This document shows positions 547 through 20,925 of a stretch of 64,000 nucleotides of DNA, piece after piece. The stretch spans positions 33,133 to 97,132 of the forward strand of contig JACOYO010000001.1 in assembly GCA_016181845.1 (NCBI GenBank). The letters run 5' to 3'. The position numbers and the translations under genes were made by a program. Under the pieces are notes generated by a model. It searched no databases and was not told the origin of the DNA. It saw only the letters and a program-made list of their open reading frames with translations. The DNA comes from Parcubacteria group bacterium (GTDB taxonomy: Bacteria > Patescibacteriota > Minisyncoccia > Phycocordibacterales > 21-14-all-47-15). Every line of letters starts with the position of its first letter. The first letter of the stretch is position 1.

Positions 547-563
547 AAAGTTAATACAAAAAA

Positions 564-1439: not shown

Positions 1440-1459
1440 ATGTACATAATAGACTAGAT

Positions 1460-2350: not shown

Positions 2351-2842
2351 TTAAAGAAGCTTTTTAATTTTTTTGATAATGCCCATAGTGGAAATATTTT
2401 CAAACTCAGTGGGACATTGTCTATCTAAAACAACCATCCTTATTCCGCGCTTGCTTGTTGCTTCTTCCCGCATTTCTTTATACGGGGCATCCTTATTTAT
2501 TATGTAAATATCGGGACGAAGAAGGTCTAATATTTTTTCGTCCAACCAAACATGCTCGGGTGTTAATGTATCCAAAAAACAATAATCAACTGATTTCAAC
2601 GAATCTACACTCTTTAGTCTTATATGTTCATTTAAAATCGGTCGGTTTGCACCTTTATATTTTTTAATTATAGCGTCACTTCCAACCGCGACAACCAATA
2701 TATCTCCGTACTGTTTACAATCTTCAAAAAATAGAGCATGCCCGGCATGTGTCAAATCAAAAGTACCGGTGCATAAAACTATTTTTTTATTTTGTGATTG
2801 TTGCCGTATGATAGGCAAATCATCATAACTAATGTAAGCCAT
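2351..2842 (-). CDS. Cytidylyltransferase-like nucleotidyltransferase (TagD / HldE-domain-II family)
   Basis: CTGTFDLTHAGH (HxGH nucleotidyltransferase signature) near the N-terminus; ~160 aa. Confidence 0.7.
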   Translation of the reverse strand: MAYISYDDLPIIRQQSQNKKIVLCTGTFDLTHAGHALFFEDCKQYGDILVVAVGSDAIIKKYKGANRPILNEHIRLKSVDSLKSVDYCFLDTLTPEHVWLDEKILDLLRPDIYIINKDAPYKEMREEATSKRGIRMVVLDRQCPTEFENISTMGIIKKIKKLL

Positions 2843-2843
2843 A

Positions 2844-4013
2844 TCAAATTACGCCAACAATAACTTTATTTAATTTCCGCCCCAAAACGCGATAATCCAA
2901 ACGCTTCGCACGAGTTAAAATATCTTTGGATAATTTGGTCCTCAAACGCTCATCCTCTCCGAGCCGATGGAGCTTTTCCGACAAATCTTTTGCGTCATCG
3001 GGCTTAAAAGTCAGCGCGGAACCTTCAGTCAACCATTCAAGCGCCCCTCCTCCTGGAATAATGCAGGGCATGCCAAACGCCATCGCTTCGGTCAGAAGCG
3101 CCGAGCCGTATTCAATCCACCATTTGGGGAAAATAAAAATCTGTGACGCGAGGAAAAAGTCAAACATTTTGTCTCTTGCCACCCAACCGGGAAATGAAAA
3201 ATATTTTCCCAAACCTGTCTCGCGCACCATTGCCTCAAGGCGTTCTTTGTCCGGCCCCCCGCCGCTCATGACAACACGATATTTTTCTTTATCCGGCAAA
3301 TCCGCAAAAGCCTTGATAACCAAATCAAATCCTTTTTCTTTAAACATCCTGCCGGTGCAAAATATGTTTACCATATCACTGGAATGCTGACGTTTTTCTA
3401 ATACCGCATCGGTAATATGGTTTCGTTCAATAATTCCCTCCATATCGACAAAATCTTCTATGACCGAGCATTTTTTGCCGTCTATGCCGAAATCTGTATA
3501 CATTTTTTGCACCATCGGCGTATTAAAAATGAACGCATCAAGATAATTGGCTATTGGGATACCAAATAGATGCTCCAAAAAAACTCTCATTTTCTTTTTC
3601 ACCGATTTCAGGAAAGACACCCGCTCCGGATTCCCCGTCATGTCCGCCCAGCAATTAAGCCTGATGTTAAAAAACGCCACTACCGGCTTTTTGCCGCCGA
3701 GCATCCGATACAGCCCGCCTCCGTACAAAAACATGTGCCCGTCTATATAAAAAGCGTCCGCGTCTTTTTCGTATTTTTTAAGCAAGCCATAGATGCCCTT
3801 CTGCATACTGAGTAAATTCCCTTTGGGCGCAATGTTTTCCTTTTTAACCGGATACGGTAAGTCAATCGTAATATTATTGGCACGAGAAAAAGCGGTCACG
3901 ACGGTGACCTCGTGCCCATGGTCAAGCAGACTTTTTGCTTTCCAGTGCAAATCCAGCACCGAGCCGCCCGCGGTTTCAAAATTCAGTTTTGAGGTAATTA
4001 AAATAATTCTCAC
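2844..4013 (-). CDS. Glycosyltransferase family 1 (GT4)
   Basis: GT-B C-terminal domain with an E..PL..EA-type motif region (EYGSALLTEAMAFGMPCI); ~390 aa. Confidence 0.75.
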   Translation of the reverse strand: MRIILITSKLNFETAGGSVLDLHWKAKSLLDHGHEVTVVTAFSRANNITIDLPYPVKKENIAPKGNLLSMQKGIYGLLKKYEKDADAFYIDGHMFLYGGGLYRMLGGKKPVVAFFNIRLNCWADMTGNPERVSFLKSVKKKMRVFLEHLFGIPIANYLDAFIFNTPMVQKMYTDFGIDGKKCSVIEDFVDMEGIIERNHITDAVLEKRQHSSDMVNIFCTGRMFKEKGFDLVIKAFADLPDKEKYRVVMSGGGPDKERLEAMVRETGLGKYFSFPGWVARDKMFDFFLASQIFIFPKWWIEYGSALLTEAMAFGMPCIIPGGGALEWLTEGSALTFKPDDAKDLSEKLHRLGEDERLRTKLSKDILTRAKRLDYRVLGRKLNKVIVGVI

Positions 4014-4390
4014 AAATTTACTTTGTCATTCATAAACGGTCCGTTTTTAATCTCAAAAATTTCCGAGTCTTCAAGCATCGTTATCGCGTGTCCGCCGGAA
4101 ACAAAAAGAAACGCCTCTCCGGCTTTTATGGGTACTGACGCCAGCCATTTTTTATTCGGAGTGTATAAATCGATTTTGACTTTACCTTTCCTGACAACCA
4201 AACACTCTTGGAGACTGGCGGTCGTTCTCTTTTTTGGAATGTGGGTATGCGGTTTTATTGAAACTCCCTTTTTATGCTTGAGGGTTAAAACCTGTAGGGC
4301 TTCAGAATCTCTGGTGATTGGGGTTACGTCCTGATTAAATTTTTGAATATGAATCCCTATGATTTCCTTTTTGTTTCTAAATACTTTCAT
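4010..4390 (-). CDS. Small cupin-fold protein (WbuC/FdtA-like), function unclear
   Basis: 126 aa; a His cluster (KPHTHIP) and beta-rich sequence typical of small cupins found in O-antigen loci. Overlaps neighbouring genes by 4 nt (operon). Confidence 0.35.
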   Translation of the reverse strand: MKVFRNKKEIIGIHIQKFNQDVTPITRDSEALQVLTLKHKKGVSIKPHTHIPKKRTTASLQECLVVRKGKVKIDLYTPNKKWLASVPIKAGEAFLFVSGGHAITMLEDSEIFEIKNGPFMNDKVNL

Positions 4391-4394
4391 GCGG

Positions 4395-5462
4395 CTAATC
4401 TATGCTAATACGTCTCCCTGGAGCAATCGAGGTGTGCAGTTCGGATTCTCGCTCGGCATGTTTTAAATCCGCTTCCGCCATCATTTGTGCCAATTTTTTA
4501 AAAGTAATTTTTGGTTTCCAACTCAAGACTTTCCGCGCTTTTCTTGGGTCTCCCAACAGTAAATCAACCTCGTTTGGTCTGAAATGTTTCGGGTCAATCT
4601 TGATAATAGTCTTGCCTGTTTTTCGGTCAACTCCCGTTTCTTTCAAGCCCCTGCCACGCCATACAATATCCATACCTAAATGATTCGCCGCCTCTTCGAC
4701 AAATTCCCGCACCGTGTGAGTCTCGCCGGTCGCAATCACGAAATCATCAGGCTTTTTGTGCTGTAAAATCTTCCATACAGCCTCCATATAATCTTTCGAG
4801 TATCCCCAGTCGCGTTTTGCATCAAGATTTCCAAGCATAAGCACCGGCTCAAGACCAAGCCTCACGCGCGACAAGCCAAGAGTGATTTTTCTTGTCACGA
4901 AATTAAATCCACGCCGCGGTGACTCGTGGTTAAAGAGAATCCCATTTGAAGCAAAGATGCCGTATCCATCACGAAAAATTTTTGTAATATGAAACGCAAA
5001 TACTTTTGAAAGCCCATACGGCGATTGAGGATTGAACTTGGTATTTTCATTTTGCGGAGTAGCGAGCACCTTGCCAAACATTTCAGAAGAGCTCGCCTGA
5101 TAGTATTTTGCCGGTAAATCAAAATTACGAATGGTTTCCAAAATGCGAAGTGGCCCGAGCGCATTCACATTCGCCGTATACTCCGGTTTATCAAAACTGA
5201 TTCGCACATGGCTTTGCGCCGCAAGGTTATAGATTTCATCCGGCTCTATTTTGTGAATAATACGGACCAAGTTAGAACTGTCAGATAAATCTCCGTATGC
5301 CATAAAAAGATTCGGGTCGGACAAATGGTCCAAGCGAATAGTATTCGGCATGCTTGAACGCCGCTGAATGCCATACACCTGGTATCCCTTCTCCAAAAGA
5401 AGCTCGGTCAAATATGAGCCGTCTTGTCCTGTTATGCCTGTGATTAATGCTTTTTTTGCCAT
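4395..5462 (-). CDS. gmd: GDP-mannose 4,6-dehydratase
   Basis: N-terminus ALITGITGQDGSYLTELLLEKGYQVYGI..RRSS and overall length ~355 aa match Gmd closely. Confidence 0.9.
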   Translation of the reverse strand: MAKKALITGITGQDGSYLTELLLEKGYQVYGIQRRSSMPNTIRLDHLSDPNLFMAYGDLSDSSNLVRIIHKIEPDEIYNLAAQSHVRISFDKPEYTANVNALGPLRILETIRNFDLPAKYYQASSSEMFGKVLATPQNENTKFNPQSPYGLSKVFAFHITKIFRDGYGIFASNGILFNHESPRRGFNFVTRKITLGLSRVRLGLEPVLMLGNLDAKRDWGYSKDYMEAVWKILQHKKPDDFVIATGETHTVREFVEEAANHLGMDIVWRGRGLKETGVDRKTGKTIIKIDPKHFRPNEVDLLLGDPRKARKVLSWKPKITFKKLAQMMAEADLKHAERESELHTSIAPGRRISID

Positions 5463-5495
5463 TTGCAGAATGAAACTAAAGATTGGCTAATAATA

Positions 5496-6044
5496 TCACT
5501 TGTTTTTAATGAAGGCAATAATATCCTTTGCGCCTTGCCGTATAGCGGAATGAAAATCGGAATGACTGACGTGCTCTGGAGATACCCATTGCAATGCAGC
5601 GTATTCGTCATTTGGCTTAAGCGCTGCCATTTCCTTATCGGTAATCGTTGCAGTCATTGTTATAGAAACCGTGTGTGAACCATTCTCAATCGGCTCTTGC
5701 GCCCTTTCTCCCCAGACCAAAGAGTACGTTCCGATATAAGACAGGCGCGACACTTCAATATCCAAACTAAGTTCTTCTTTTAATTTTCTAGAAGCCGCTT
5801 CTTCAAAACTTTCTCCCGGCATCATCCGCCCGCCGATAATCCACCAATCGGGCCATGGGGCTCTTGTTCTTTTTCCAAGCAATATTTCTCCGCGATTGTT
5901 GATAACCGCAATATCGGCAGTGGCAACCACCACACTATCAAGCACTTTTGCATACTCCTCAGCACTTAAAGACGCAGCATGACGATTAAACGCGCCAGTT
6001 ACAAAATGATGGTAATTCATTTTCATATGATAACATCTCCGCAT
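5496..6044 (-). CDS. NUDIX hydrolase (GDP-mannose mannosyl hydrolase-like)
   Basis: Nudix box GGRMMPGESFEEAASRKLKEELSL. Adjacent to gmd. Start overlaps the upstream stop codon. Confidence 0.7.
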   Translation of the reverse strand: MRRCYHMKMNYHHFVTGAFNRHAASLSAEEYAKVLDSVVVATADIAVINNRGEILLGKRTRAPWPDWWIIGGRMMPGESFEEAASRKLKEELSLDIEVSRLSYIGTYSLVWGERAQEPIENGSHTVSITMTATITDKEMAALKPNDEYAALQWVSPEHVSHSDFHSAIRQGAKDIIAFIKNK

Positions 6045-6850
6045 TAAACAAAGTCACTTTTGAGTAACCCGGTATCTGTTTCTTCCAATCTCCATCCGAC
6101 CGCTCCGCAAATTTCCTTCAAGTGTCCCGCGTTAGCGGTTTTTGGTATCACAACGATATCTTGGCTGATTAACCAATTGAGCGCTATTTGAATTGGCGTT
6201 TTTTGATATTTTTTACTCAAGGTATTGAGTATTTCTTTTTGCTCGAGCGCCAGCTTTCCTTTTGCAAGCGGGCGGTGCGCAATTACTTTTATATTATTCT
6301 CTTTGCAAAACGGAATAATTTCTTTCTCCGCCGAACGTTCGAGCAAGCTGTATTCGATTTGATTTGCCGCAAGAGTCGTCTTGCTCAAATACGATTGCGC
6401 CTCCTCCATAATCGGCACGGAAAAGTTGCTGACGCCGATATGGCGCACTTTTTTATTTGATACCAATTCCTCAAGCGCCCGCATAGTCTCCAGCAAAGGC
6501 GCCGCTTCGTTCGGCCAATGAATTAAATATAGATCAATATAATCGGTCTGTAACCGTTTCAGACTTTTCTCTGCCGCTGCCAAAACAGCATCATGGCGCA
6601 GATTGGTCTTCCAGACTTTTGTAATGAGAAAAATATCTTCTCTGTTGTGTCCTTTTATGGCTTGCCCTACTATCTCCTCGGTCAACCCTTCCCCATACAA
6701 TTCTGCCGTATCAATAAGCCTTATGCCGAGAGCAAGTCCTTGTTTCAAAATAGAAATTGATTGTTCGATATTGCTTTCGTCTCTTTCATATTTTCCGCCC
6801 ATGCCCCACGTACCCATGCCAAGCGCCGGAATGTTCATTTCTTTACCCAT
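6044..6850 (-). CDS. Aldo-keto reductase
   Basis: LGMGTWGMG ... IDTAELYG ... LITKVW motifs typical of aldo-keto reductases. Confidence 0.8.
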   Translation of the reverse strand: MGKEMNIPALGMGTWGMGGKYERDESNIEQSISILKQGLALGIRLIDTAELYGEGLTEEIVGQAIKGHNREDIFLITKVWKTNLRHDAVLAAAEKSLKRLQTDYIDLYLIHWPNEAAPLLETMRALEELVSNKKVRHIGVSNFSVPIMEEAQSYLSKTTLAANQIEYSLLERSAEKEIIPFCKENNIKVIAHRPLAKGKLALEQKEILNTLSKKYQKTPIQIALNWLISQDIVVIPKTANAGHLKEICGAVGWRLEETDTGLLKSDFV

Positions 6851-6855
6851 GTTTC

Positions 6856-8094
6856 TTATACAATGATTACTGCAGGCGTTGGTATGATAAATTTCCCCTT
6901 ATATCCGGCACCCCTTATTTTCGGAATCAATTCATCTGCAATGTTCCAGGAAAGGAGGAGCGCGTATTCCGGTTGGTCAACAAATAAACGGCTTTCCGGC
7001 ACGACGGGGATGCGTGTGCCGGGCGCAAAAAGACCGATTTTTAATGGGCTTTTTTCAACCAAATAATCAACGAGGCCAGGATTTGATGCGCAAAAATTGA
7101 GAAGCGTATTGCCTTTTGCCGGCGCGCCGATACCGACAACCCGCTTCCCCATACCCCGCTGTTCGGAAATGAATTTTTGAATGGAAATTTTATTTTGATT
7201 TGCCTTTTCGGCAAAATCGGCATATGTTTCTTTTTTATACAACCCCGCCGCTTCTTCTTTGTTGATAAGATGTTCAACAGTATCAAGCACTTTATGAGCC
7301 CCCTTTTTTGCTGCATAGATGCGGATTGAGCCGCCATGGGTAGAAATTTTTTCCGCATCAAACATTTCCAGCCCGTGAGCCGCAAACAACATCTTGAGCG
7401 GTTTCAATGAATAATACCGCAAGTGCTCATGATACACGGCGTCATATTGCAGTTTGGTAATCATATCGAGCAAATACCCCGATTCCGATACAAACACTCC
7501 ATCCTGAGTAAGCAGTTCCGCAACGCCGGCCAAAAAATCATTCAGTTTATTAACATGAGCAAAAACATTCGTTGCAGTTATTATTTTCGCATTGCCGTAT
7601 TTTTTCTCCACTTGCATAGCCACTGTCTTGGAAAAAAAATCAACGAGAGTCGGTATGTTATTTTTCAAAGCCAATTGAGCCGAGCTTGACGGGTCAATTC
7701 CTAAAATTTTCACACCGTACGGCACATAATTCGATAAAAGTGTCCCGTCGTTTGAACCGATATCAATTGCAAAATCGGTATTTTTTAATTGGAAACGCTC
7801 TATCAAGGTCTCAACGAGATTGTAAAAATTAACCTTGAGACTGTTGTTGGTCGCAGTATTGTATACATAATCCACAAACAATTTTTCCGGCGGAACAATA
7901 TGGTTTAGCTGAACCAAACCGCATGTCTCGCAAAAACAAAGTTCAAGCGGATATGTCGCTTCCGGTTTGCAAAGGTCTTCTGATTTCAAAAAAGCATCGC
8001 TTGGCGGCTGGTGCCCCAAATCAAGGAAATTAAAGAAGGTTGTGTTGTCGCAAATAAAACAATGCATGCCATTACTTATCAAATCGATAGACAA
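6856..8094 (-). CDS. SAM-dependent C-methyltransferase (TylCIII/NovU-like; N-terminal Zn-binding domain, C-terminal C-methyltransferase domain)
   Basis: N-terminal C-x2-C ... C-x2-C (CFICDN ... CFCETCG). Central DIGSNDG SAM-binding motif. ~410 aa architecture of NDP-hexose C-methyltransferases. Confidence 0.7.
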   Translation of the reverse strand: MSIDLISNGMHCFICDNTTFFNFLDLGHQPPSDAFLKSEDLCKPEATYPLELCFCETCGLVQLNHIVPPEKLFVDYVYNTATNNSLKVNFYNLVETLIERFQLKNTDFAIDIGSNDGTLLSNYVPYGVKILGIDPSSSAQLALKNNIPTLVDFFSKTVAMQVEKKYGNAKIITATNVFAHVNKLNDFLAGVAELLTQDGVFVSESGYLLDMITKLQYDAVYHEHLRYYSLKPLKMLFAAHGLEMFDAEKISTHGGSIRIYAAKKGAHKVLDTVEHLINKEEAAGLYKKETYADFAEKANQNKISIQKFISEQRGMGKRVVGIGAPAKGNTLLNFCASNPGLVDYLVEKSPLKIGLFAPGTRIPVVPESRLFVDQPEYALLLSWNIADELIPKIRGAGYKGKFIIPTPAVIIV

Positions 8095-9895: not shown

Positions 9896-10977
9896 GTAAT
9901 GTTATTCAAAATTGTCGCTATCTTTTTTATTTCTTGTTTTTTTAGATACGGGTACATCGGCAGTGAGAATATCTCTCGGGCGTAGCGTTCCGCCACAGGA
10001 AAGCTATTTTTTTCCTGTTTTGCGTAAAATGGGTGGCGATGGAGCGGGGTTCTATAATGGATGAGTGTTTGAATACCATGCTCTTTCAAGAGCTTCATTA
10101 TAGCATCCCTTTTTGGGGCGCGCACCACAAATAAATGATACACGCACTGGCTATCCCCCTGCGGGGTCGGTAATACAATCTTTGGATTCACAATTAAGTT
10201 CCGATACTGGAGAGCAAGCTGCTGTCTTGTTCGATTCCATGTATCTACATACTTTAATTTTACACTGAGTACAGCCGCTTGTATTTCATCAAGACGGCTA
10301 TTCATCCCCGGTATTGAACACACCTGCCTGTCTTTCTGCCCGTAAAAACGCTCCGCTAGAAGTTTTGTGTAATTTTTTTTGCTTTTTGTGATAATGGCGC
10401 CGCCGTCCCCATACGCGCCGATATTCTTGGTCGGATAAAAAGAAAAACATCCAAAATCTCCAAAACTTCCCACCTTTTTACCTTTCCACATTGCACCGGT
10501 CGCTTGGGCGCAATCCTCTATAAGCGTCAGGCGAAAACGCCGTGAAATTTTCTTTAGGGCGTCCATATCGCATGCTTGACCGTACAAATGTACCGCGATA
10601 ATCGCTTTGGTTTTTTTATTTATACGCCGAACAATCTGTTTACTATCAATTAAAAATGACTCATCGCAATCAACAAAAACGGGGCGCGCGCCGCTCATGG
10701 ATACCGCCATGGCAGTCGGCAATGCCGTGTTTACCGGCACAATCACCTCATCTCCTTGCCCGATACCCGCGCATAGAAGACTTAGGTAGAGCGCGTCGGT
10801 CCCGGAATTTACCCCCACGCAATATGGGGCATCGCAGTATTCGGCAAAACGTTTTTCAAAATTCTCTAATTCAGGCCCCAGGACAAACCACCCGCGCCGT
10901 AAGACACGATGAATTGCCTCATCAATTTCCTTTTTCAAGGATTTATATTCACGCGTAAAATCAACAAATGGGATCAT
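9892..10977 (-). CDS. DegT/DnrJ/EryC1/StrS-family PLP-dependent sugar aminotransferase
   Basis: FVLGPELENFEKRFAEYC ... GVNSGTDALYL, with the conserved Lys region; ~360 aa. Confidence 0.85.
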   Translation of the reverse strand: MIPFVDFTREYKSLKKEIDEAIHRVLRRGWFVLGPELENFEKRFAEYCDAPYCVGVNSGTDALYLSLLCAGIGQGDEVIVPVNTALPTAMAVSMSGARPVFVDCDESFLIDSKQIVRRINKKTKAIIAVHLYGQACDMDALKKISRRFRLTLIEDCAQATGAMWKGKKVGSFGDFGCFSFYPTKNIGAYGDGGAIITKSKKNYTKLLAERFYGQKDRQVCSIPGMNSRLDEIQAAVLSVKLKYVDTWNRTRQQLALQYRNLIVNPKIVLPTPQGDSQCVYHLFVVRAPKRDAIMKLLKEHGIQTLIHYRTPLHRHPFYAKQEKNSFPVAERYAREIFSLPMYPYLKKQEIKKIATILNNIT

Positions 10978-10978
10978 G

Positions 10979-11410: not shown

Positions 11411-11424
11411 AGGTATACTATATG

Positions 11425-12045: not shown

Positions 12046-12112
12046 CTATTGTTTATATTTCCTAGCGAGGCCACGCGAAAATTTATTTTCGTGATGACCG
12101 AGCGACGGAAAT

Positions 12113-12865: not shown

Positions 12866-12878
12866 ACAGCGATTGATG

Positions 12879-14327: not shown

Positions 14328-15346
14328 GATAATTTAAGATGCGAGTTTATCTCTTTTTTTCGTTTTAAGATATTTTCAACCCAATCATTATTTTCTTTAT
14401 ACCATTGCAATACGTCTGGCAATTTATTTTCCAGAGAATATTTTGGCTTCCAACCAAGCCGGCGTAATCTTGATGAGTCAACAGCATATTTCCGATCATG
14501 CGCCGGTCTGTCTTTTACAAATGTGATCAGAGTTTGCGGTTTCCTTAACGCCGAGAGTATTTTTTGAGCAATAATTTTATTGGAATATTCTTTTCCTTCT
14601 GAAATTCCAAAGGTGTCCCCGCTTTTTGATTTTTGCAAAAGAAGAAGCAATGCATCGGTATGGTCATCAACATACAGCCAATCGCGCATATTTCGACCGT
14701 CTCCATACAACGGTAGTGATTCATCGTGCAAAGCGCGCACTGTAAAAAATGGTATCAATTTTTCCGGAAATTGTCGCGGTCCAAAATTATTGACTGAACG
14801 AGAGATAACTACCGGTACTCCATAGGTATGTACATACGCACGAATAAGCAATTCGGCAGCCGCTTTTGACGCGGCGTATGGCGAATTCGGTTTCAGGGGA
14901 GAATCTTCATTGAACTTTTTTTTAGAAGCAAGCGGCAAATCCCCCCACACTTCATCGGTTGAGACATGTACCATTTTTTTCACACGCGGAGATTTTTGAA
15001 GCGCTTTCATAAGCGAGTGCACGCCGATGATGTTTGATTGAATAAAAGCGTCGGCTCCTCCGTGAATAGACCGGTCCACATGCGTTTCTGCGGCAAAATT
15101 AACCACAAAATCAACCGAGCTCATGAGTTTTTCCACGAGCGCCGTATCGCAAATATCGCCTTTCACAAAAGAATACCTCGCTTGCGGCACGCCGAGAAGA
15201 TTATCTTGATTGCCGGCATAGGTGAGCGCGTCAAGGTTAATCACAGACGCATTTTTAACAACGCTTAAAAAGCGGTGGATAAAATTAGAGCCCATGAAAC
15301 CGGAGCCGCCGCAGACAAGAATCTTTTTGTGTTTGAAATAATTCAT
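14324..15346 (-). CDS. rfbB: dTDP-glucose 4,6-dehydratase
   Basis: ILVCGGSGFMGSNF Rossmann motif, YAASKAAAELL (Y-x3-K). ~340 aa, typical RfbB/RmlB. Confidence 0.8.
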   Translation of the reverse strand: MNYFKHKKILVCGGSGFMGSNFIHRFLSVVKNASVINLDALTYAGNQDNLLGVPQARYSFVKGDICDTALVEKLMSSVDFVVNFAAETHVDRSIHGGADAFIQSNIIGVHSLMKALQKSPRVKKMVHVSTDEVWGDLPLASKKKFNEDSPLKPNSPYAASKAAAELLIRAYVHTYGVPVVISRSVNNFGPRQFPEKLIPFFTVRALHDESLPLYGDGRNMRDWLYVDDHTDALLLLLQKSKSGDTFGISEGKEYSNKIIAQKILSALRKPQTLITFVKDRPAHDRKYAVDSSRLRRLGWKPKYSLENKLPDVLQWYKENNDWVENILKRKKEINSHLKLS

Positions 15347-15384
15347 AATATTTTGCTATTCAAAATTGTACACCCCATCCACCT

Positions 15385-17235
15385 TTATATCGCATCCCGC
15401 CCATGGTGTGTAAAAACAAAAATCTTATACCCAAAAAAATTACCGAAAAATGCGATTGGGATTTCTATGGCAAGAGCTATATTTACCCATATCTTAGGGT
15501 CTATGCCATTAGGCGCGCCGATAACATTAACGATAATATGAAGCAAAAATATATTCAAGAGAGATGTGGCGCTCGTTATGGTAAAAAATTTAATGTACTC
15601 TGCTCTTCCGTTGTCGGTATTGTGCGCACGAAATGTCCAGAATTTATTCCAAAAAAAACTGTGCGTGATGGTAATTATTGAAGAAATGATCGTAAAAAAA
15701 ATCACCTGCCAGCCGCGCGCTATGTCGGTAAACCAAATAAAAAGATTGGTAATACCGGCAAAAAGAAACGTATTTAAAAGCCCTATCAATCCATATTTCC
15801 CAATTTGGAAAATTGAGGAACGCCACCGCATGCCCAATAGATATGCGCCGTATAAACCGGCAACGGTCATAAACGGAAGCAAAAAAAGCCAGAGTCCAAT
15901 TACAAAAAAGGAGAGCCCATGATTGTAGCGCGCTAATATGTCAAACACTTTTATATTTTGAAACACAGGAATAGAAAGCAGAGCGATGGCTTCCCCAATA
16001 ATAAGCGTCCGCCAAAAATCGGTTTTGGTGAACACTAAAATTTCTCCAAGTTCTTTATACGTGTTGCCTGACGTCTGGCGTAAAACAGTCCCATTATTAT
16101 GTAGGATGTTTTTCATAAAATGAATAATATTCGCGGCCCTGTTGCTCCAAGAATATTCCACCACGGTCTCTCGCGCTTTTTTTGAGAATGTTTTTAGAGC
16201 CGCGCAATCAGACAATCCGAAAACAGTCTTTTTTGCCAAATCGTTCGGGTTATCCGCATCAAAAAATATGGCCGTTGTTTCATGCAGTATCTCGCGTACA
16301 GCAGGCGTATCAGAAGCAATAATCGGCGTGCCAGAAGCCATATACTCAAAAAGTTTCATTGGTGAAGTGTACTCCCTTCCTATTTTCTCTTTTCCGCTTG
16401 TTGGCAAGACTAGCACATCCGCTGCTCTAAGCCACAACGGAATTTCCTGATGCTGGCGATGCCCGACAAAAATAATGTTTTTATATTTTATATTTTGTAT
16501 TTTGTATTTTGAAACTTCTTCTGCAGTGCCGCCGACGAGATATACGAGCATATCTGCATCCAATTTTTTTGCCGCCTCAATCAAAGTGTTAACACCCTTC
16601 CACTTGTAAAGATGTCCAGCGTAAAGAATGATTTTTTTATCAAGCGGAAGATTAAGCGTTTTTCTCGCGGCTTCTTTTGATATAACAATATCAAAACGCC
16701 TCAAATCAACGGCATCCGGCGCACAAAGTATTTTATCTTCAGAGACTCCAAAGCGCATGAGGTCTTTTTTTATGCCGTTGCTGATGACGACCAATCCCAT
16801 ACTTTTGCGCAAAACAAAATTGTGAAGAAACGATGACTTTTGAGGAAGTGTATGAAGCTCATAAAATATAGGCTTATGGAATAAAGCGAACAGAAACGCA
16901 ACCAAAAAATCACGGGTATAAAATACTGCGTCTTTTTCAAAAACCGCTCGCGCAATTGCCGACACGGAAAACGTAACGCTTTCAATCCAAAACCAAAGGG
17001 GTTTAAAAAAAGGAATCGGAATCAAATCCAAAACTGGCAAACGTTTGATATTGAATACTGCATCAACGCCATAATACAGAAAAGGGTCCTGTTTTATCGG
17101 GTTAAGCCTCCACGGCACAACAAGCGTAATTTCAATATCTTTCCCCTGTTTAAAGGCGCGTGCGGTATTCATAATCTGAACCCCGTGTGCTTTCTCCGTC
17201 GGCAAGCGAATATTTGCAATATATAAGAGTTTCAT
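15385..17235 (-). CDS. Fusion protein: N-terminal GT4 glycosyltransferase + C-terminal GtrA-like 4-TM membrane domain
   Basis: GT4 body (residues ~1-380) followed by hydrophobic helices ending YIKFFTITSATSLLNIFLLHIIVNVIG ... FFGNFFGYKIFVF (GtrA-like). Contains a heptanucleotide tract at 16484-16511. Confidence 0.65.
   Translation of the reverse strand: MKLLYIANIRLPTEKAHGVQIMNTARAFKQGKDIEITLVVPWRLNPIKQDPFLYYGVDAVFNIKRLPVLDLIPIPFFKPLWFWIESVTFSVSAIARAVFEKDAVFYTRDFLVAFLFALFHKPIFYELHTLPQKSSFLHNFVLRKSMGLVVISNGIKKDLMRFGVSEDKILCAPDAVDLRRFDIVISKEAARKTLNLPLDKKIILYAGHLYKWKGVNTLIEAAKKLDADMLVYLVGGTAEEVSKYKIQNIKYKNIIFVGHRQHQEIPLWLRAADVLVLPTSGKEKIGREYTSPMKLFEYMASGTPIIASDTPAVREILHETTAIFFDADNPNDLAKKTVFGLSDCAALKTFSKKARETVVEYSWSNRAANIIHFMKNILHNNGTVLRQTSGNTYKELGEILVFTKTDFWRTLIIGEAIALLSIPVFQNIKVFDILARYNHGLSFFVIGLWLFLLPFMTVAGLYGAYLLGMRWRSSIFQIGKYGLIGLLNTFLFAGITNLFIWFTDIARGWQVIFFTIISSIITITHSFFWNKFWTFRAHNTDNGRAEYIKFFTITSATSLLNIFLLHIIVNVIGAPNGIDPKIWVNIALAIEIPIAFFGNFFGYKIFVFTHHGRDAI
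16484..16511. repeat. Heptanucleotide simple sequence repeat (TATTTTG)x3-4 inside the GT4-GtrA CDS
   Basis: Reads tatttta tattttg tattttg tattttg. Coding strand (CAAAATA)n encodes KYKIQNIKYKN in frame. Confidence 0.8.
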
Positions 17236-17901
17236 TTATTTTGATGCGCTAAAAAACAATCCGAGTGCGAATTTTTCACGCGGCAGTTTCGGCTTTATTA
17301 AAAAAACTATCCAATCAGCAAAAAAGGAACCGGGCAGAATCAAAAACCTGAGCACTCTTGGCAGAACAAACTCAACCTGCGAATATGCTGCCGAAAAAGG
17401 TCCACGGCCAAGCACCGTCACTTTTACATCGCGAAGTAAGGCGGTTTCATACGCCGCCGCAAGAGTTTCACTTGTATACCGCCAAAAATCATGCGGGTCC
17501 GGATGATACCCGACCAAAAAAGGAACAGCGCCAATCATGCGTCCACCGGGTTTTAAAATCCTATGTATCTCTTTGAGCAAAAAAGAGTACCGATAGACAT
17601 GTTCAAAAATATTGAACACAAGAACCGTGTCGATGCTATTATCTTGATACGGCAGCGCGTCTTTCTCGAAATCAATTGAAACATTTTTTTCAGACGGCTG
17701 ACTTCCAAAACCGACATCAAGCGCAGCAATTTCCATGGTCTTTCCTTTTTGAAAAAAACGATAGTAGCTCGCTTGGTTAACGCCACTCCCCAAATCAACC
17801 ACCTTTCCTGAAAGCGTATAATGCGCGCATTCATTGTTCATGAATATGCGGTATAGATCTTTCCCTCGCCATATTTCTTTTATATAATTCCATCCGCTCA
17901 T
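17236..17901 (-). CDS. Class I SAM-dependent methyltransferase
   Basis: VVDLGSGVNQ ... LKPGGRMIGAVPF motifs. Abuts the neighbouring genes. Confidence 0.6.
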   Translation of the reverse strand: MSGWNYIKEIWRGKDLYRIFMNNECAHYTLSGKVVDLGSGVNQASYYRFFQKGKTMEIAALDVGFGSQPSEKNVSIDFEKDALPYQDNSIDTVLVFNIFEHVYRYSFLLKEIHRILKPGGRMIGAVPFLVGYHPDPHDFWRYTSETLAAAYETALLRDVKVTVLGRGPFSAAYSQVEFVLPRVLRFLILPGSFFADWIVFLIKPKLPREKFALGLFFSASK

Positions 17902-19733
17902 ATTTCTATTTTATATGCCCTTGCCCATATTTGGAAAGTCATGACCGCCCAGAGAATGTTCAGATTGTACACTTTTGAATCTCGGTGTTCTTCCAAAATT
18001 TTTTTGATTTCTTCAAACAAAAAAAGTTGCGCTGTTGGCTTATAATACCCTTCCGACAATATATGCTCTGCCATTCTATAAATATCAGGATGACGGAGCC
18101 ACTTAGCCGCCGGAGAAAACCAGCCACGCTTTGGCTCTTTAAAAAGAAAGCTCGGCAAATCACTTTCAAACGCTTTTTTTAGTATAATCTTCGTATCAAA
18201 GAGGCTGATTTTTTCTTTGAGCGGAATTGTCGCGGCAAACTCCACCACCTCTCTATCAAGCAACGGCACTCGCGCTTCAAGCCCAGCTGACATGCTCATC
18301 TTATCGCTAAGCATGAGGGAAAAATCAACGAGCCAGCTCCTTCGGTCGGTGTCCATAAAAAGCTCTTCGAATAATCTATCCTCATTTCCTTTAAAATATT
18401 TTTTATTAAAAAAAGCTTCTGTCATTCCCTGCGATAAAAACGACTTTTGAATCACCGAGCTCAAAAGCGATTCTTTTTGAAACATAAAAAGTGAGAAGCG
18501 GTTAACCCCGCTCGGAGTATTTAATTTTTTGATATTGCTACTCACCCGAGCTAGCGGATCTCGTAGCCATTTCGGCACCGTTTGCCAATAACGCGCAGCC
18601 AAACTCAATCGATACCGCTCATAGCCGCCGAAAAGCTCATCGCCGCCGTCTCCGCCAAGCACAACATCGGCTTTTTGTTTCGCAAAGCCCGCCAATTTCA
18701 TCATCGCCAAAGCGGTCGGATTTGAGATCGGCTCATCCATGTGCCAGACGGCCCGCTCGAGCGTATCCAGCACATCAGGCACGCCAAGGAGCACTTCGTG
18801 ATGGTTTGTTCCGAAATGCTTTGCCGTACGACGCGCCAAATGAAAATCAGCATTAAACTTTTCCTGCTGTTCTTTTTCACCTAATCGGAACCCGACAGAA
18901 AAGGTATCGATATTTTTTCTTTGACCGGCAAGCGCCGAGAGCACAATACTTGAGTCTATGCCGCCCGATAAATATACGCCAAGCGGCTTGTCTGATACCA
19001 ATTGGCGCGTAACTGAAGAAATAATTTTTTGGCGAAGAGTGTGCGCCAATTCTCCCCTTTCTCCGGAGAAATACTTTCCGTGCGGCGCCCGCCAAAAGGT
19101 TTTGGTTTGCAACATTCCGTTTCTTAACACCAAACTGGTAGCCGGCGGCACTTTGTATATTCCTTCAAACATTGTGAAAGGCTCCGGCACGTACAATGCC
19201 CGAAAATAATGATTGAATGCCTCTCGGTTAAGTTTTCTCGGAACCCCGTGCTCAAGAATCGCTTTTATTTCGGAAGAAAATATAAATTTCTTGCCATCCC
19301 AAAAATAATAGAGCGGTTTTATGCCCACGTGGTCGCGCGCAAGAAAAAGCTCTTTCTTGCGCCTGTCCCAAATCGCAAACGCGAAAATTCCGTTAAATTT
19401 TTTAACGCAGTCATGCCCCCATTTTTCATAGGCGGCCAAAATGACTTCCGTATCACTCGCTGTCTTAAACTGATACGCGGTAGCGAGCTCCTGCTTGAGT
19501 TCTTTGAAATTATATATTTCTCCGTTAAAGACGATCACGAGGTTCCCAGTATTATTTTTCATCGGCTGTCCGGCTTCTTCACGCACGTCAATAATGCTCA
19601 ACCGATTGTGCCCAAAAGAAATGCCTCCATCTAAAAATATGCGGGTTCCGTCAGGCCCGCGATGCTTGGTGATTTGATTCATATTTTGAATCAAACGTTC
19701 GTCTTCAAAATTAAATCCATTGATTGAGCACAT
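17898..19733 (-). CDS. asnB: Asparagine synthase (glutamine-hydrolysing)-like amidotransferase
   Basis: N-terminal MCSINGF (Cys2 nucleophile), SGGIDSS PP-loop; ~610 aa. Common in glycan loci (WbpS-like). Confidence 0.8.
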   Translation of the reverse strand: MCSINGFNFEDERLIQNMNQITKHRGPDGTRIFLDGGISFGHNRLSIIDVREEAGQPMKNNTGNLVIVFNGEIYNFKELKQELATAYQFKTASDTEVILAAYEKWGHDCVKKFNGIFAFAIWDRRKKELFLARDHVGIKPLYYFWDGKKFIFSSEIKAILEHGVPRKLNREAFNHYFRALYVPEPFTMFEGIYKVPPATSLVLRNGMLQTKTFWRAPHGKYFSGERGELAHTLRQKIISSVTRQLVSDKPLGVYLSGGIDSSIVLSALAGQRKNIDTFSVGFRLGEKEQQEKFNADFHLARRTAKHFGTNHHEVLLGVPDVLDTLERAVWHMDEPISNPTALAMMKLAGFAKQKADVVLGGDGGDELFGGYERYRLSLAARYWQTVPKWLRDPLARVSSNIKKLNTPSGVNRFSLFMFQKESLLSSVIQKSFLSQGMTEAFFNKKYFKGNEDRLFEELFMDTDRRSWLVDFSLMLSDKMSMSAGLEARVPLLDREVVEFAATIPLKEKISLFDTKIILKKAFESDLPSFLFKEPKRGWFSPAAKWLRHPDIYRMAEHILSEGYYKPTAQLFLFEEIKKILEEHRDSKVYNLNILWAVMTFQIWARAYKIEI

Positions 19734-20925
19734 TGAGAATAATGTTATCTATTTTTTCTTGCGAAAATAGTGTTGACGAAAGCAACCGCGAATTTTTAGA
19801 TAATTCCCGTCGAAGCTCCGTGTCTCGGAGCCGTACTAGCGCATCTGCAAACTCTTTGGGCGTTCGCGCAAAAAGCACGTGAATATTTTCTTTAAACTGA
19901 TACCCGGCCATTCCTCTTGGAGAAATAACCGCGGGAATACCGCGCGCAAGCGGCTCAAAAATTTTTTGCTGCATGCCGGCGCCCATAAGCGAGGGGATAA
20001 GAGCAATATCCATTGTGTCCAAGAAATCATCTAATTCTTTACCGAGTTTGCGCCCTGCATATATGACGTATTCATTAAAATATCCGTTAAATTCTTGCGG
20101 TACTTTGGTTCCTAAAATATGAAACTTGAAAGATCTGGGATACGTGCGCATGACGCGCGGAGCAATATCTCTTAAAATAGAGCGGAGCGCTTCTTTGTTG
20201 TGGTGCACATTGTATGTTGAACCCATAAAAAAAACATTGAGTGGTTCTTTTTGTGAAAACATATGCCGTTCGCGCAAACACATAGGAAGCCCGCGAAGCG
20301 GCAGTATTTCCACTTTTTTTGCTCCGTATTTTTTATAGACTTTTTCCTCATCCGGCGTAATGGCAAAAAGAAAATCACTCTTTTTTATCGTAATCAGTTC
20401 GCTTATCAATTTCGGCAAAAATTTTAAATAATTGCCAAACGTGCGGCCGTCTTCTTCCAAAAAGTGCGTCGGCTCGACATTGATCGAGCGGGTAATAATC
20501 GGAATATGTCTTTTTTGAAAAATAAAATACAGCGGCCACAGATACGTGTAATCAAACCATACAACATCAGGTTGCCATTCATCGGTAATTTTTTTTACCG
20601 TTTCAATAGTTTCTTTGTGAGCATATTCATACGCGGCTCCATCCCAATAGAGCGGATTAATGAATCTTTTAAGATAGAAGAAAGCACGCTGGGCTCCGTT
20701 CTTCGCCTTTTGAGACTCATACGGAAGAAGCGTAATCGGAATATCATATTGACGCGAAAAATCTTCGATGTTCTTCGTACTCTGAAAATCAAATACTTTG
20801 CCAACAATGTGCATGTCAAAGCCGAGCCGCTTTAATTGCTTGATGCCTTCGAAACGGTCTTTCTCACAGGCGCCAAGTGCTGGCAATGGAAATCGCGGAG
20901 TAATCACTAAAATCCGTTTGCTCAT
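19711..20925 (-). CDS. Glycosyltransferase family 1 (GT4); first gene of the ~18.6-kb minus-strand glycan operon
   Basis: C-terminal GT-B domain with KIFEPLARGIPAV; ~400 aa. Long hairpin-rich leader upstream. Confidence 0.7.
   Translation of the reverse strand: MSKRILVITPRFPLPALGACEKDRFEGIKQLKRLGFDMHIVGKVFDFQSTKNIEDFSRQYDIPITLLPYESQKAKNGAQRAFFYLKRFINPLYWDGAAYEYAHKETIETVKKITDEWQPDVVWFDYTYLWPLYFIFQKRHIPIITRSINVEPTHFLEEDGRTFGNYLKFLPKLISELITIKKSDFLFAITPDEEKVYKKYGAKKVEILPLRGLPMCLRERHMFSQKEPLNVFFMGSTYNVHHNKEALRSILRDIAPRVMRTYPRSFKFHILGTKVPQEFNGYFNEYVIYAGRKLGKELDDFLDTMDIALIPSLMGAGMQQKIFEPLARGIPAVISPRGMAGYQFKENIHVLFARTPKEFADALVRLRDTELRRELSKNSRLLSSTLFSQEKIDNIILNVLNQWI

Follow-up and report, generated by a model that had tools for sequence, protein, structure and literature searches.

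The 18 minus-strand genes at positions 2351 to 20925 of the window (the whole 64,000-nucleotide stretch of DNA that was analyzed, from an uncultured Parcubacteria (CPR) bacterium) are best explained as one transcription unit whose product is a surface glycan that is both built and exported. We favor a model, to which we give a probability of roughly 0.6, in which the operon holds two modules: genes g7–g2 would make a GDP-linked branched sugar, and genes g15–g8 would make a dTDP-linked amino sugar that is transferred by way of a lipid carrier. The conserved surroundings of the C-methyltransferase, g7, suggest that it belongs with the GDP-mannose 4,6-dehydratase (GMD) genes and an aldo-keto reductase (AKR), not with the amino-sugar genes. 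The substrates, order of steps, stereochemistry and acceptor given below for both modules are predictions from sequence and gene context.

An 18-gene operon between two terminators

In the six-frame list of open reading frames, the 18 genes run from g18 down to g1 with intergenic distances of −32 to +67 nt, and the widest gaps are those between g12 and g11 (67 nt), g15 and g14 (38 nt), and g5 and g4 (33 nt). The ends of the operon and the genes that flank the two modules are as follows.

21058–21086, minus strand: intrinsic terminator of the preceding gene and 5′ limit of the operon; 12–13 bp G+C-rich stem, then a T-run
19711–20925, minus strand: g18, first operon gene, GT4-type glycosyltransferase (Pfam Glyco_trans_1_4, Glyco_trans_1_2, Glycos_transf_1)
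17898–19733, minus strand: g17, AsnB-type glutamine-dependent amidotransferase (GATase_7 and Asn_synthase; TIGR01536, 462 bits against a cut-off of 267)
17236–17901, minus strand: g16, class I SAM methyltransferase with a hydrophobic C terminus (Pfam Methyltransf_11, Methyltransf_23)
2351–2842, minus strand: g1, last operon gene, small cytidylyl/adenylyl-transferase-like protein (PF01467)
2308–2335, both strands: bidirectional hairpin terminator shared by g1 and the convergent gene (A7-CCGCGA-TACC-TCGCGG-T6)
3–2302, plus strand: three convergent genes outside the operon, namely a partial Capsule_synth-like protein (3–410; Capsule_synth was matched in the L016 homolog), an FkbM-family methyltransferase (564–1439; TIGR01444, 112 bits) and a 280-aa protein that weakly matches an HD domain (1460–2302; E = 0.002)

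The initial annotation had described a tightly spaced operon of 18 minus-strand genes closed by a terminator at each end, and both parts of this description hold, down to the exact coordinates of the genes; the families that it named were likewise all confirmed by HMM (Pfam/NCBIfam) or PDB comparison. The upstream terminator (21086–21058, −21.5 kcal/mol, z = −6.2) lies between the preceding gene (21105–22175) and g18, with a promoter-like site at 20961–20934, and the downstream hairpin (about 2335–2308, −17 kcal/mol, z = −3.3) directly follows the g1 stop codon and faces the convergent plus-strand gene; each consists of a hairpin and a T-run. Inside the operon, terminator-like matches are weak and are not enriched, as we found 30 where 22.4 ± 5.4 are expected from shuffles. 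The most likely start of g7 is Met10 (ATG at 8067), which matches the start of an identical 403-aa database protein (P0001) and would abolish the g8/g7 overlap; for g12, an ATG inside the reading frame is the probable start.

For a comparison of synteny, we used about 50 related loci (labeled L0xx). The nucleophile of g17 is its N-terminal Cys2, and AsnB homologs also occur in L020, L021 and L022; g17 may amidate the glycan, and g16 and g11 (below) may O- or N-methylate it. A homolog of g18 was not found in the related loci. The match of g1 to domain II of RfaE (TIGR02199) is 86 bits, under the cut-off of 181, and g1 homologs lie near C-methyltransferases in L021, L022, L045 and L046. The functional gene set extends beyond the transcription unit in both directions, with the convergent genes recurring in relatives (clusters c6, c10 and c20, in 10, 6 and 3 loci, respectively) and glycan genes upstream of the operon reaching to about 33.4 kb. 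Two generic extended SDRs are encoded just upstream (21105–22175 and 24587–25528), and they could act in trans as a conventional 4-ketoreductase, an observation that speaks against the two-module model.

The C-methyltransferase and its conserved neighbors

Six genes at the 3′ side of the operon make up the second module.

6856–8067, minus strand: g7, NDP-hexose 3-C-methyltransferase of the TylCIII/TcaB9/MtmC family (Methyltransf_13, class I methyltransferase and Methyltransf_14 domains)
6044–6850, minus strand: g6, AKR (PF00248, 224 bits)
5496–6044, minus strand: g5, NUDIX hydrolase resembling GDP-mannose mannosyl hydrolase, Gmm (PF00293)
4395–5462, minus strand: g4, GMD (TIGR01472, 496 bits against a cut-off of 415)
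4010–4390, minus strand: g3, small cupin related to WbuC and DUF6016, always after GMD
2844–4013, minus strand: g2, GT4 glycosyltransferase (Glycos_transf_1, Glyco_transf_4)

That g7 is a TylCIII-like C-methyltransferase, as had been proposed, is borne out by its three-domain architecture, by its PDB matches (MtmC 4rv9, 271 bits, E = 1e-79; KijD1, 225 bits; TcaB9, 216 bits), and by its retention of the zinc cysteines 12, 15, 55 and 58, the Y221-x-E223-H224 motif and the SAM motif DIGSNDG. Requiring a C-methyltransferase of at least 50% identity followed by at least 900 nt of downstream sequence left 18 independent loci. Fifteen of these, drawn from CPR bacteria and one Woesearchaeota archaeon, have the AKR one or two genes downstream of the C-methyltransferase; the three loci that lack an AKR have GMD immediately after the C-methyltransferase. 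GMD, the WbuC-like cupin and a g2-type GT4 then come in about half of the C-methyltransferase/AKR loci (type A), while type B loci have the pair with an NDP-sugar dehydrogenase, another SDR and the GT4, and lack GMD. The pairing survives these rearranged surroundings and is also found in a Woesearchaeota MAG. The same arrangement of C-methyltransferase then AKR appears in L051 and L052, the latter of which repeats g8-g7-g6-g4-g3-g2 with the NUDIX gene missing, and in the reverse direction, each of three homologs chosen from an AKR search has a C-methyltransferase gene immediately before it and GMD and cupin genes after it. This synteny suggests that the C-methyltransferase and the AKR are functionally coupled. 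An AKR unrelated to sugar metabolism in homologous loci had been named initially as grounds for refutation, and we find that AKR orthologs are always in sugar loci.

The catalytic tetrad of g6 (D47/Y52/K78/H111) is intact, and its nearest characterized relatives are generic (Thermotoga TM1743, DkgB-like), being 2,5-diketogluconate or aldehyde reductases. Such relatives, together with the one-base overlap of g6 and the NUDIX gene in the window, would fit an enzyme that reduces a free sugar or aldehyde, such as a NUDIX-released hexose to its alditol, or a housekeeping reductase serving detoxification. We give such a role very little credence, since none of the related loci has the NUDIX gene, yet in them the AKR still lies directly downstream of the C-methyltransferase, and a housekeeping enzyme would not hold such a position across CPR bacteria and a DPANN archaeon. 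We propose that g6 is the ketoreductase partner of g7, with gene context as the one pointer to a nucleotide-sugar substrate.

The neighborhood also bears on which sugar g7 would methylate. The initial annotation had placed g7 in the dTDP amino-sugar branch together with RmlB, FdtA and the DegT aminotransferase, leading to a 3-amino-3,6-dideoxyhexose with a possible C-methyl branch. The four genes do share one operon, and the family members TcaB9 and KijD1 methylate 3-amino sugars, but the 3-amino-4-keto sugars on which they act arise through a 2,3-dehydratase, an enzyme not encoded here. TylC3/TcaB9-type enzymes need a 4-keto group for deprotonation at C-3. A C-methylated 3-amino sugar made via FdtA is chemically implausible in either order of steps: once FdtA and the C-3 aminotransferase have acted, the 4-keto group that would acidify C-3 is gone, and prior methylation would leave a quaternary C-3 that cannot be isomerized. 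Moreover, an FdtA or RmlB ortholog lies beside the C-methyltransferase in none of the about 50 related loci, and where the enzyme occurs in them, the AKR almost always follows it and GMD often does. Thus, this part of the earlier prediction is not borne out, and we regard it as highly improbable.

A second alternative, in which g7 and the AKR act on the RmlB product dTDP-4-keto-6-deoxy-glucose to give a dTDP-6-deoxy-3-C-methyl-hexose as a third branch, while GMD and the cupin make a separate, unbranched GDP-6-deoxyhexose finished by another reductase, is unlikely, though it deserves some weight. A dTDP substrate for g7 is conceivable because all characterized TylCIII-family enzymes use dTDP sugars, to our knowledge, and because RmlB, as well as RmlA, is encoded in the operon. 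Generic SDRs are nearby, and type B loci show the pair to be independent of GMD. In the in-silico study of virenose, TDP and GDP routes are both given as plausible (PMC3539893). Against this alternative, no locus has an RmlB ortholog with the AKR-linked clade, whereas GMD is within 5 kb of the C-methyltransferase in 11 of 21 loci, and besides an optional slot, occupied by NUDIX here and by an FkbM methyltransferase in L010, L017 and L050, nothing separates the pair from GMD. In a neighbor-joining tree, g7 falls in the AKR-linked clade, itself nested within the GMD-linked clade, and the dTDP-type enzymes MtmC and KijD1 and the RmlB-linked L032 fall outside. Orthologs of g4 (70–91% identity) adjoin the pair in L002, L005–L007, L010 and L017, and GMD-family genes are in the same position in L048–L050 and L052.

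In the GDP route that we prefer for g7–g2, GMD (g4) would convert GDP-mannose to GDP-4-keto-6-deoxy-mannose, the cupin g3 would probably epimerize this 4-keto sugar in the manner of TylK or RmlC-type cupins, g7 would add a methyl group from SAM at C-3, and the AKR g6, in place of the usual SDR, would reduce the 4-keto group. The product would be a GDP-6-deoxy-3-C-methyl-hexose (of the evalose, virenose or nogalose-precursor type), transferred by the GT4 g2. As to g3, it is a candidate epimerase or isomerase on the GDP-4-keto sugar whose fold does not discriminate these activities from those of other cupins. Orthologs of g2 (47–58% identity) occur in 12 loci spanning both type A and type B, and its conservation with the C-methyltransferase/AKR cassette makes it a candidate transferase for the branched sugar. 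GT11 genes, of a fucosyltransferase family that uses GDP sugars, are present in L021, L022 and L049. Type B loci, having the pair without GMD, count against the GDP model, since the pair has no fixed link to GDP sugars as such.

A noncanonical GDP-6-deoxyhexose route through GMD, NUDIX and AKR had been suggested before. Its GMD and AKR elements stand, but because the C-methyltransferase groups with the AKR and often with GMD, the route is better read as GMD, cupin, C-methyltransferase and AKR, with the NUDIX as an accessory unique to this locus. Gmm-like NUDIX enzymes are ordinary companions of gmd, and g5, whose top PDB match is E. coli Gmm (2i8t, 50.6 bits; runner-up, 30 bits) and whose match to NF011963 (54 bits) is under the cut-off of 146, may trim the GDP-sugar pool.

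Amino-sugar genes and proposed transfer through a lipid carrier

The first module is made up of eight genes.

15385–17235, minus strand: g15, GT4 glycosyltransferase (Glycos_transf_1, residues 187–356) fused to a GtrA-like membrane domain (GtrA_DPMS_TM, 480–608)
14324–15346, minus strand: g14, dTDP-glucose 4,6-dehydratase, RmlB (TIGR01181 equivalog, 397 bits against a cut-off of 365)
12879–14327, minus strand: g13, RmlA (residues 1–240; NTP_transferase) fused to an ArnC/DPMS-like GT2 (250–455; Glycos_transf_2)
12113–12910, minus strand: g12, second ArnC-like GT2 of the polyprenyl-phosphate sugar transferase type (Glycos_transf_2)
11425–12045, minus strand: g11, class I SAM methyltransferase (Methyltransf_25, Methyltransf_11)
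10979–11410, minus strand: g10, FdtA-type dTDP-4-keto-6-deoxyglucose 3,4-ketoisomerase (PF05523, 143 bits)
9892–10977, minus strand: g9, DegT-family PLP aminotransferase, C-3 type (PF01041, 377 bits)
8072–9895, minus strand: g8, 607-aa polytopic membrane protein of a Pfam-less GT-C fold family

The dTDP-3-amino-3,6-dideoxyhexose branch (Fuc3N or Qui3N type) of the initial annotation is well founded. RmlB scores above its equivalog cut-off; the nearest solved relative of g10 is FdtA from Aneurinibacillus (2pa7, 133 bits, against 102 bits for QdtA), with the catalytic pair His60/His62 kept; and the top PDB matches of g9 (PLP lysine K184) are all C-3 aminotransferases (7b0d, 7n63, QdtB 3frk, DesV 2oga, WlaRG and WbpE, at 394–265 bits), compared with at most 182 bits for C-4 aminotransferases. 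A g10 homolog is absent from all related loci. The N-terminal part of g13 matches the glucose-1-phosphate thymidylyltransferase RmlA (3hl3, 216 bits), and g13 is under the TIGR01207 cut-off (238 against 361 bits) because the RmlA C terminus is replaced; the replacing part matches ArnC (9bhc, 53 bits) and DPMS (5mlz, 50 bits). This fusion and that of g15 were absent from the initial annotation. In g12, which clusters as a paralog of the g13 C terminus, the top NCBIfam match is the undecaprenyl-phosphate Ara4FN transferase, at a sub-cut-off 61 bits.

RmlA, RmlB, FdtA and g9 would together yield a dTDP-3-amino-3,6-dideoxy-hexose. These correspond to the first four enzymes of the dTDP-Fuc3NAc/Qui3NAc pathway of S-layer and O-antigen glycans (RmlA, RmlB, FdtA/QdtA, FdtB/QdtB, FdtC/QdtC), but the operon has no N-acetyl- or N-formyl-transferase for the 3-amino group, and g11 holds that position. 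Since homologous methyltransferases also lie beside the DegT-GT2-g8 genes in L010 and L002, g11 is a candidate modifier of the amino sugar; it gives no specific match to TylM1 or DesVI, and N-methylation is a conjecture.

The ArnC-like GT2s (the g13 C terminus and g12) may then put a sugar on polyprenyl phosphate, the GtrA domain of g15, which has hydrophobic segments at 410–600 and a predicted flippase-like role, may help to flip the lipid-linked sugar across the membrane, and g8 would pass the sugar to an acceptor outside it, following ArnB/ArnC/ArnT logic. The DegT-GT2-g8 arrangement recurs in L002, L006 and L010. g8 is a GT-C fold glycosyltransferase without a Pfam family, and its sequence shows no recognizable resemblance to the PMT_2 proteins encoded in the window. 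The module differs from the three-component ArnB/ArnC/ArnT and GtrA/GtrB/GtrC lipid-carrier systems in its predicted starting sugar, which is dTDP-glucose (processed via FdtA) in place of UDP-GlcA, and in its two fusions, of a GT2 with RmlA and of the GtrA domain with a GT4. It also differs in that the sequence of g8 is not detectably similar to that of any GT-C family in Pfam.

Likenesses of the predicted branched-sugar module to known systems

Module 2 shares its enzyme logic with the last steps of the actinomycete dTDP-L-mycarose and L-nogalose pathways (TylC3/EryBIII/SnogG2, TylK/SnogF, TylC2/SnogC), which likewise have an NDP-4-keto-6-deoxyhexose, a SAM-dependent 3-C-methyltransferase of the same family, whose zinc and Y-x-E-H motifs g7 keeps, a small cupin and a separate ketoreductase. 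FkbM-type O-methyltransferases are often near the cassette, a further likeness to nogalose. The 4-keto sugar generator conserved beside the cassette is GMD here and RmlB there, the reductase is an AKR here and an SDR there, the cupin is WbuC/DUF6016-like here and RmlC-like there, a 2,3-dehydratase is lacking in this operon, and the genes belong to a surface-glycan operon in CPR and DPANN organisms instead of to an antibiotic cluster. The E. coli colanic acid genes gmd-fcl-gmm resemble the module in that GMD is accompanied by a Gmm-like NUDIX; however, g5 fails to reach the cut-off of the Gmm family and has no counterpart in the related loci, the operon has no Fcl, and neither ManB nor ManC is encoded in the window.

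By its published description, the GDP route that has been proposed for virenose (6-deoxy-3-C-methyl-gulose), a sugar of Coxiella burnetii LPS, also combines a GMD (CBU_0689), a TylCIII-like C-methyltransferase (CBU_0691) and a reductase for a surface polysaccharide (PMC3539893), but the proposed reductase there is a GMER/Fcl-like SDR (CBU_0688), whereas here it is an AKR. The Coxiella pathway is known in silico only and was still uncharacterized in 2026 (PMC13252051). An HldE-like gene is essential for virenose in Coxiella (PMC13252051), and g1 resembles domain II of HldE.

Operon and its genes

Eighteen minus-strand genes occupy 2351-20925 in our six-frame ORF list, and these are the same ORFs that the initial annotation had grouped as one 18-gene operon. 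Neighbouring genes are tightly spaced (-32 to +67 nt), and there is a hairpin at either end of the group. The 5′ hairpin at 21086-21058 lies between the preceding gene and g18 and has a G+C-rich stem of 12-13 bp followed by a T-run (-21.5 kcal/mol, z = -6.2). The 3′ hairpin at about 2335-2308, with A7/T6 flanks, follows g1 and faces the convergent gene (-17 kcal/mol, z = -3.3). Terminator-like matches inside the operon are weak and at chance level, and Rfam and tRNA scans of the window gave no matches. We conclude that 2351-20925 is a true operon, and that it is an ordinary kind of object, namely a surface-glycan gene cluster.

Comparisons with Pfam, NCBIfam, and PDB confirmed every family that had been assigned to these genes at the outset; the earlier interpretation as a whole is partly supported. 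The substrates that we assign below are inferred from gene context and from what is known of the families.

Genes of the operon, all on the minus strand, listed in order of transcription
g18: GT4 glycosyltransferase
g17: AsnB-type amidotransferase
g16: class I methyltransferase
g15, 15385-17235 (-): fusion of a GT4 with a GtrA/DPMS transmembrane domain at the C terminus
g14: RmlB; exceeds the equivalog cut-off
g13, 12879-14327 (-): RmlA fused to an ArnC/DPMS-like GT2
g12: second ArnC-like GT2
g11: class I methyltransferase
g10: FdtA; closest solved relative is Aneurinibacillus FdtA; His60/His62 present
g9: DegT aminotransferase; C-3 type in each of its six closest solved relatives
g8, 8072-9895 (-): 607-aa membrane protein without a Pfam match
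g7: TylCIII-type C-methyltransferase; three domains, zinc cysteines, Y-x-E-H motif
g6: aldo-keto reductase (AKR); D-Y-K-H tetrad intact
g5: Gmm-like NUDIX; under the family cut-off
g4: GMD; exceeds the equivalog cut-off
g3: 126-aa cupin with weak WbuC similarity
g2: GT4 glycosyltransferase
g1, 2351-2842 (-): small nucleotidyltransferase, HldE-domain-II-like

Partners of the C-methyltransferase

The three domains of g7 all exceed their cut-offs (N-terminal zinc domain PF08421, 75 bits; PF13489, 54 bits; C-terminal PF08484, 160 bits), and the zinc-binding cysteines C12, C15, C55, and C58 are present. The active-site motif Y221-H-E223-H224 aligns to YHEHL in MtmC and YDEHF in KijD1, and we take Y222/E224/H225 to be its counterpart in TcaB9. 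In the PDB comparison, g7 matches MtmC (4rv9) over residues 12-411 with E = 1.2e-79, KijD1 with E = 1.5e-65, and TcaB9 with 6e-63.

The initial annotation had placed g7 in the amino-sugar branch with RmlB, FdtA, and the DegT aminotransferase. Enzymes of the TylC3/TcaB9 type deprotonate C-3 adjacent to a 4-keto group. In the FdtA route, the keto group is shifted to C-3 and then replaced by an amine, so that no 4-keto group is left. TcaB9 and KijD1 methylate 3-amino sugars that come from a 2,3-dehydratase route, in which the 4-keto group is kept, and no 2,3-dehydratase was found in the operon by Pfam. Because no 4-keto group is left after FdtA and transamination, the chemistry agrees with a position of g7 outside the RmlB/FdtA/DegT branch.

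To see which genes accompany g7, we used loci with g7 relatives (3 genome and 43 metagenome loci, plus 5 obtained by exact-protein look-ups), mapped all window proteins onto them, and clustered all of their ORFs. The closest genomes are Candidatus Falkowbacteria MAGs, which makes the host a CPR bacterium. In a forward test set of 18 independent loci, each with a C-methyltransferase of at least 50% identity and enough sequence downstream, the AKR is next or next but one after the C-methyltransferase in 15, and GMD follows directly in the remaining 3. The reverse test gave the same picture: three AKR homologues picked out of an AKR-first search each have a C-methyltransferase on one side and GMD with the cupin on the other.

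Two arrangements recur. Type A has the order (g8), C-methyltransferase, AKR, an optional FkbM methyltransferase, GMD, cupin, g2-type GT4, and one locus (L052) has the exact g8-g7-g6-g4-g3-g2 order of the window without the NUDIX gene. The FkbM methyltransferase fills the slot of the window's NUDIX in L010, L017, and L050. Type B loci (L003, L004, L009, L011, L012, L014, L016, L018-L020, L040, and L051) keep the C-methyltransferase, AKR, and GT4, but GMD and cupin give way to an NDP-sugar dehydrogenase (TIGR03026) plus an extended SDR of another kind, weakly like 4,6-dehydratases and UDP-4-keto-pentose/UDP-xylose synthase; here the sugar that is C-methylated could be a 4-keto sugar of uronic acid origin. 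L051 comes from a Woesearchaeota MAG and has a second C-methyltransferase in divergent orientation. Another type B locus, L003 (CAYPRN010000043.1), is labelled 'uncultured Gammaproteobacteria bacterium' and has gene order and near-identical proteins in common with the Candidatus Falkowbacteria contig L004 (JBDRNG010000004.1), so its label is probably a binning error. A GT11 gene (fucosyltransferase family) lies just downstream of the GMD-cupin genes in L021, L022, and L049; L021 and L022 also have an AsnB-type amidotransferase there and no AKR. Genes like g1 lie near C-methyltransferases in L021, L022, L045, and L046.

None of the related loci has FdtA, the NUDIX gene, or an RmlB orthologue. 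The neighbours are instead AKR and GMD, which suggests that g7 belongs with AKR, GMD, cupin, and GT4 and not with RmlB, FdtA, and DegT, and the original placement of the C-methyltransferase is not borne out. The AKR is clearly tied to sugar metabolism in homologous loci, as had been supposed, although the partner that it keeps throughout is the C-methyltransferase and not the NUDIX protein.

Placement of g7 among characterised enzymes, which had been called for, was done against MtmC and KijD1. In this neighbour-joining tree of a small set, where MtmC and KijD1 are the only characterised references and their sequences come from PDB alignments, g7 falls in an AKR-linked clade that is itself inside a GMD-linked clade. 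Outside this clade are both dTDP enzymes, MtmC and KijD1, together with L032, the sole RmlA/RmlB-linked homologue. From the GMD linkage, the missing RmlB linkage, and the separate clade, g7 is a putative methyltransferase for C-3 of an NDP-4-keto-hexose, and its predicted substrate carries GDP. That g7 acts on a dTDP substrate is unlikely on the same grounds, even with type B loci, where the C-methyltransferase/AKR pair is independent of GMD, speaking in its favour. Searches of the part of the literature covered, for pairing of an AKR with a sugar C-methyltransferase and for a GDP-dependent C-methyltransferase, gave only an in-silico paper on virenose (PMC3539893).

Two predicted sugar routes and the g8 family

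For the GDP-sugar branch (g7-g2), GMD is well supported (TIGR01472, 496 bits vs a cut-off of 415) and would convert GDP-mannose to GDP-4-keto-6-deoxy-mannose, which the cupin g3 probably epimerises. g7 would then methylate C-3, g6 would reduce C-4, and g2 would transfer the sugar. The AKR g6 scores 224 bits for PF00248 and has the catalytic residues D47, Y52, K78, and H111; its closest solved relatives are the generic AKRs 5dan and 6kik (224 bits). NDP-sugar ketoreductases of the AKR type exist in AKR12 (TylCII/EryBII). The cupin reaches 33.8 bits for TIGR04366 (WbuC), under the cut-off of 42, and has a generic cupin fold; its distant homologues carry PF19480 (DUF6016), and H48, H50, and E62 are invariant across the family. 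It always accompanies GMD and is never present in type B loci.

By sequence, g5 is Gmm-like only and appears to be a locus-specific accessory: it scores 54.5 bits for NF011963 (Gmm/WcaH), under the cut-off of 146, and its best solved relative is Gmm (50.6 bits vs 30 for the next match). In the colanic acid cluster, too, gmd has a NUDIX gene of this kind next to it. We considered g5 as an EvaA/TylX3-like 2,3-dehydratase of a mycarose-like cassette and rejected this, as g5 consists of one Nudix domain (182 aa) that is most similar to Gmm, gives no PF03559 match, and is absent from all related loci. The two SDRs encoded upstream of the operon were likewise rejected as Rmd or Fcl, since neither attains any equivalog cut-off; they may act as reductases in trans.

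The proposed steps follow the same logic as mycarose biosynthesis (the TylC3, TylK, and TylC2 steps) and the nogalose route, but the g7-g2 branch differs from these in its GDP-sugar generator, its non-homologous reductase, and its different cupin family. Among proposed pathways, the one that comes closest is a GDP route to virenose in Coxiella, itself in silico only (PMC3539893). As of 2026 the virenose pathway is uncharacterised, and according to a 2026 preprint (PMC13252051) Coxiella cannot make virenose without the HldE-like gene CBU_0678. The window's g1 likewise resembles HldE domain II, the heptose-1-phosphate adenylyltransferase.

Our most far-reaching interpretation is that CPR bacteria and DPANN archaea share a portable cassette of a TylCIII-type C-methyltransferase and a dedicated AKR, which in the window is joined by GMD and a WbuC-like cupin; its product would be a GDP-linked 6-deoxy-3-C-methyl-hexose, delivered to the surface alongside the g8 GT-C family. 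We put the probability of this slightly short of even, at roughly 0.45. If it is true, g7 would be the first to use a GDP sugar in a methyltransferase family otherwise known only from dTDP-sugar antibiotic pathways, g6 would be the first AKR in place of an SDR 4-ketoreductase, and g8 would represent a previously unrecognised GT-C glycosyltransferase family.

In the dTDP branch (g15-g8), RmlA, RmlB, FdtA, and the C-3 aminotransferase would yield dTDP-3-amino-3,6-dideoxyhexose. g14 scores 397 bits for TIGR01181 (cut-off 365). g13 reaches 238 bits for TIGR01207, under the cut-off of 361, because a GT2 domain stands in for the C-terminal region of RmlA; its N-terminal 240 residues match solved RmlA proteins at 216-200 bits, and from its sequence it is expected to work like RmlA though it is a non-canonical member. 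g10 scores 143 bits for PF05523, and its H60-A-H62 aligns to the HAH of FdtA 2pa7 (133 bits). g9 scores 377 bits for PF01041 with PLP lysine K184, and C-3 enzymes take the first six places among its solved relatives (394-265 bits), with perosamine synthase and ArnB at 182 bits or below.

No N-acyltransferase is present in this branch. The adjacent g11 may modify the amino sugar, and N-methylation by it is a guess; g11 as a TylM1/DesVI-type N,N-dimethyltransferase was rejected, as it shows no specific similarity and its solved relatives are generic class I methyltransferases. DegT-GT2-g8 recurs in L002, L006, and L010, accompanied in L002 and L010 by a methyltransferase homologous to g11.

The paralogous stand-alone GT2 g12 is directly downstream of g13, and for both GT2 domains (g12 and the g13 C terminus) the best NCBIfam and PDB matches are ArnC and DPMS, far under the equivalog cut-offs (61 vs 529 bits). 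The 12001-14000 segment covering this GT2 region has a G+C of 0.376, vs 0.41-0.45 elsewhere in the operon. A g15 homologue in L002 is 366 aa long and has no GtrA part. Together, the two ArnC/DPMS-like GT2 domains (one RmlA-fused), the GtrA domain, and g8 could form an ArnB/ArnC/ArnT-like lipid-carrier route. GT-C enzymes take polyprenyl-phosphate-linked donors.

Profile and sequence searches of g8 against Pfam and PDB found nothing, and its GT-C assignment was obtained by fold comparison only. A high-confidence model groups g8 with AftA, ArnT, AglB, and similar GT-C glycosyltransferases, and g8 has all the features by which we judged GT-C proteins: its N-terminal membrane domain is polytopic with GT-C topology, the C-terminal domain is soluble, and the first extracytoplasmic loop contains acidic residues. 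We conclude that g8 is, as predicted from this model, a GT-C fold glycosyltransferase. Kinship of g8 with the PMT_2 GT-C proteins of the window was rejected, as hhalign gave a probability of 3%. In several loci g8 also lies directly upstream of the C-methyltransferase. The family has 846 representatives at 50% identity clustering, each about 590 aa, and neither a Pfam nor an NCBIfam model; that this widespread family now has a fold-level assignment we consider noteworthy.

Surroundings and significance

Features flanking the operon
3-2302 (+): partial Capsule_synth-like protein, FkbM methyltransferase (564-1439), and 280-aa protein with a weak HD-domain match; convergent with the operon
21105-33371: continuation of the glycan island on the upstream side of the 5′ terminator, as far as about 33.4 kb; encodes two generic extended SDRs, GT2s, two PMT_2 GT-C proteins, a methyltransferase, and four GT4s
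23142-24506 and 26286-27770: the PMT_2-type GT-C proteins
33374-34834: Lamin-tail-domain/PKD surface protein, after the glycan island

Homologues of the 3-2302 genes are scattered through related loci, and from this recurrence the functional cluster passes the 3′ terminator. The Lamin-tail-domain/PKD protein could itself be a glycosylated protein of the cell surface.

Apart from a few LPS sugars, Coxiella virenose among them, nearly all C-methyl branched deoxysugars known are from antibiotics of actinomycetes. The compact, conserved CPR/DPANN C-methyltransferase and AKR cassette, linked here to GMD and a WbuC-like cupin, is noteworthy. It provides soluble candidates for asking whether TylCIII-type enzymes accept GDP sugars and whether an AKR can act as an NDP-4-ketoreductase, and for finding the role of WbuC-like cupins. 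CPR cells are episymbionts, and surface chemistry therefore probably matters in their attachment to the host; if display of C-methylated and amino deoxysugars were known, it would guide glycan mass spectrometry of enrichments.

Elsewhere in the window, a 673-aa ORF at 35802-37823 has no Pfam match, and a PIF1-like helicase, which carries HTH_40 at its C terminus, adjoins a DUF5667 protein (43003-44820 and 45267-47123, both on the minus strand). As far as we know, Parcubacteria genomes are usually described as being without respiratory enzymes; the window encodes a 907-aa molybdopterin oxidoreductase with Fe4S4, Molybdopterin, and Molydop_binding domains at 51587-54310 (-).
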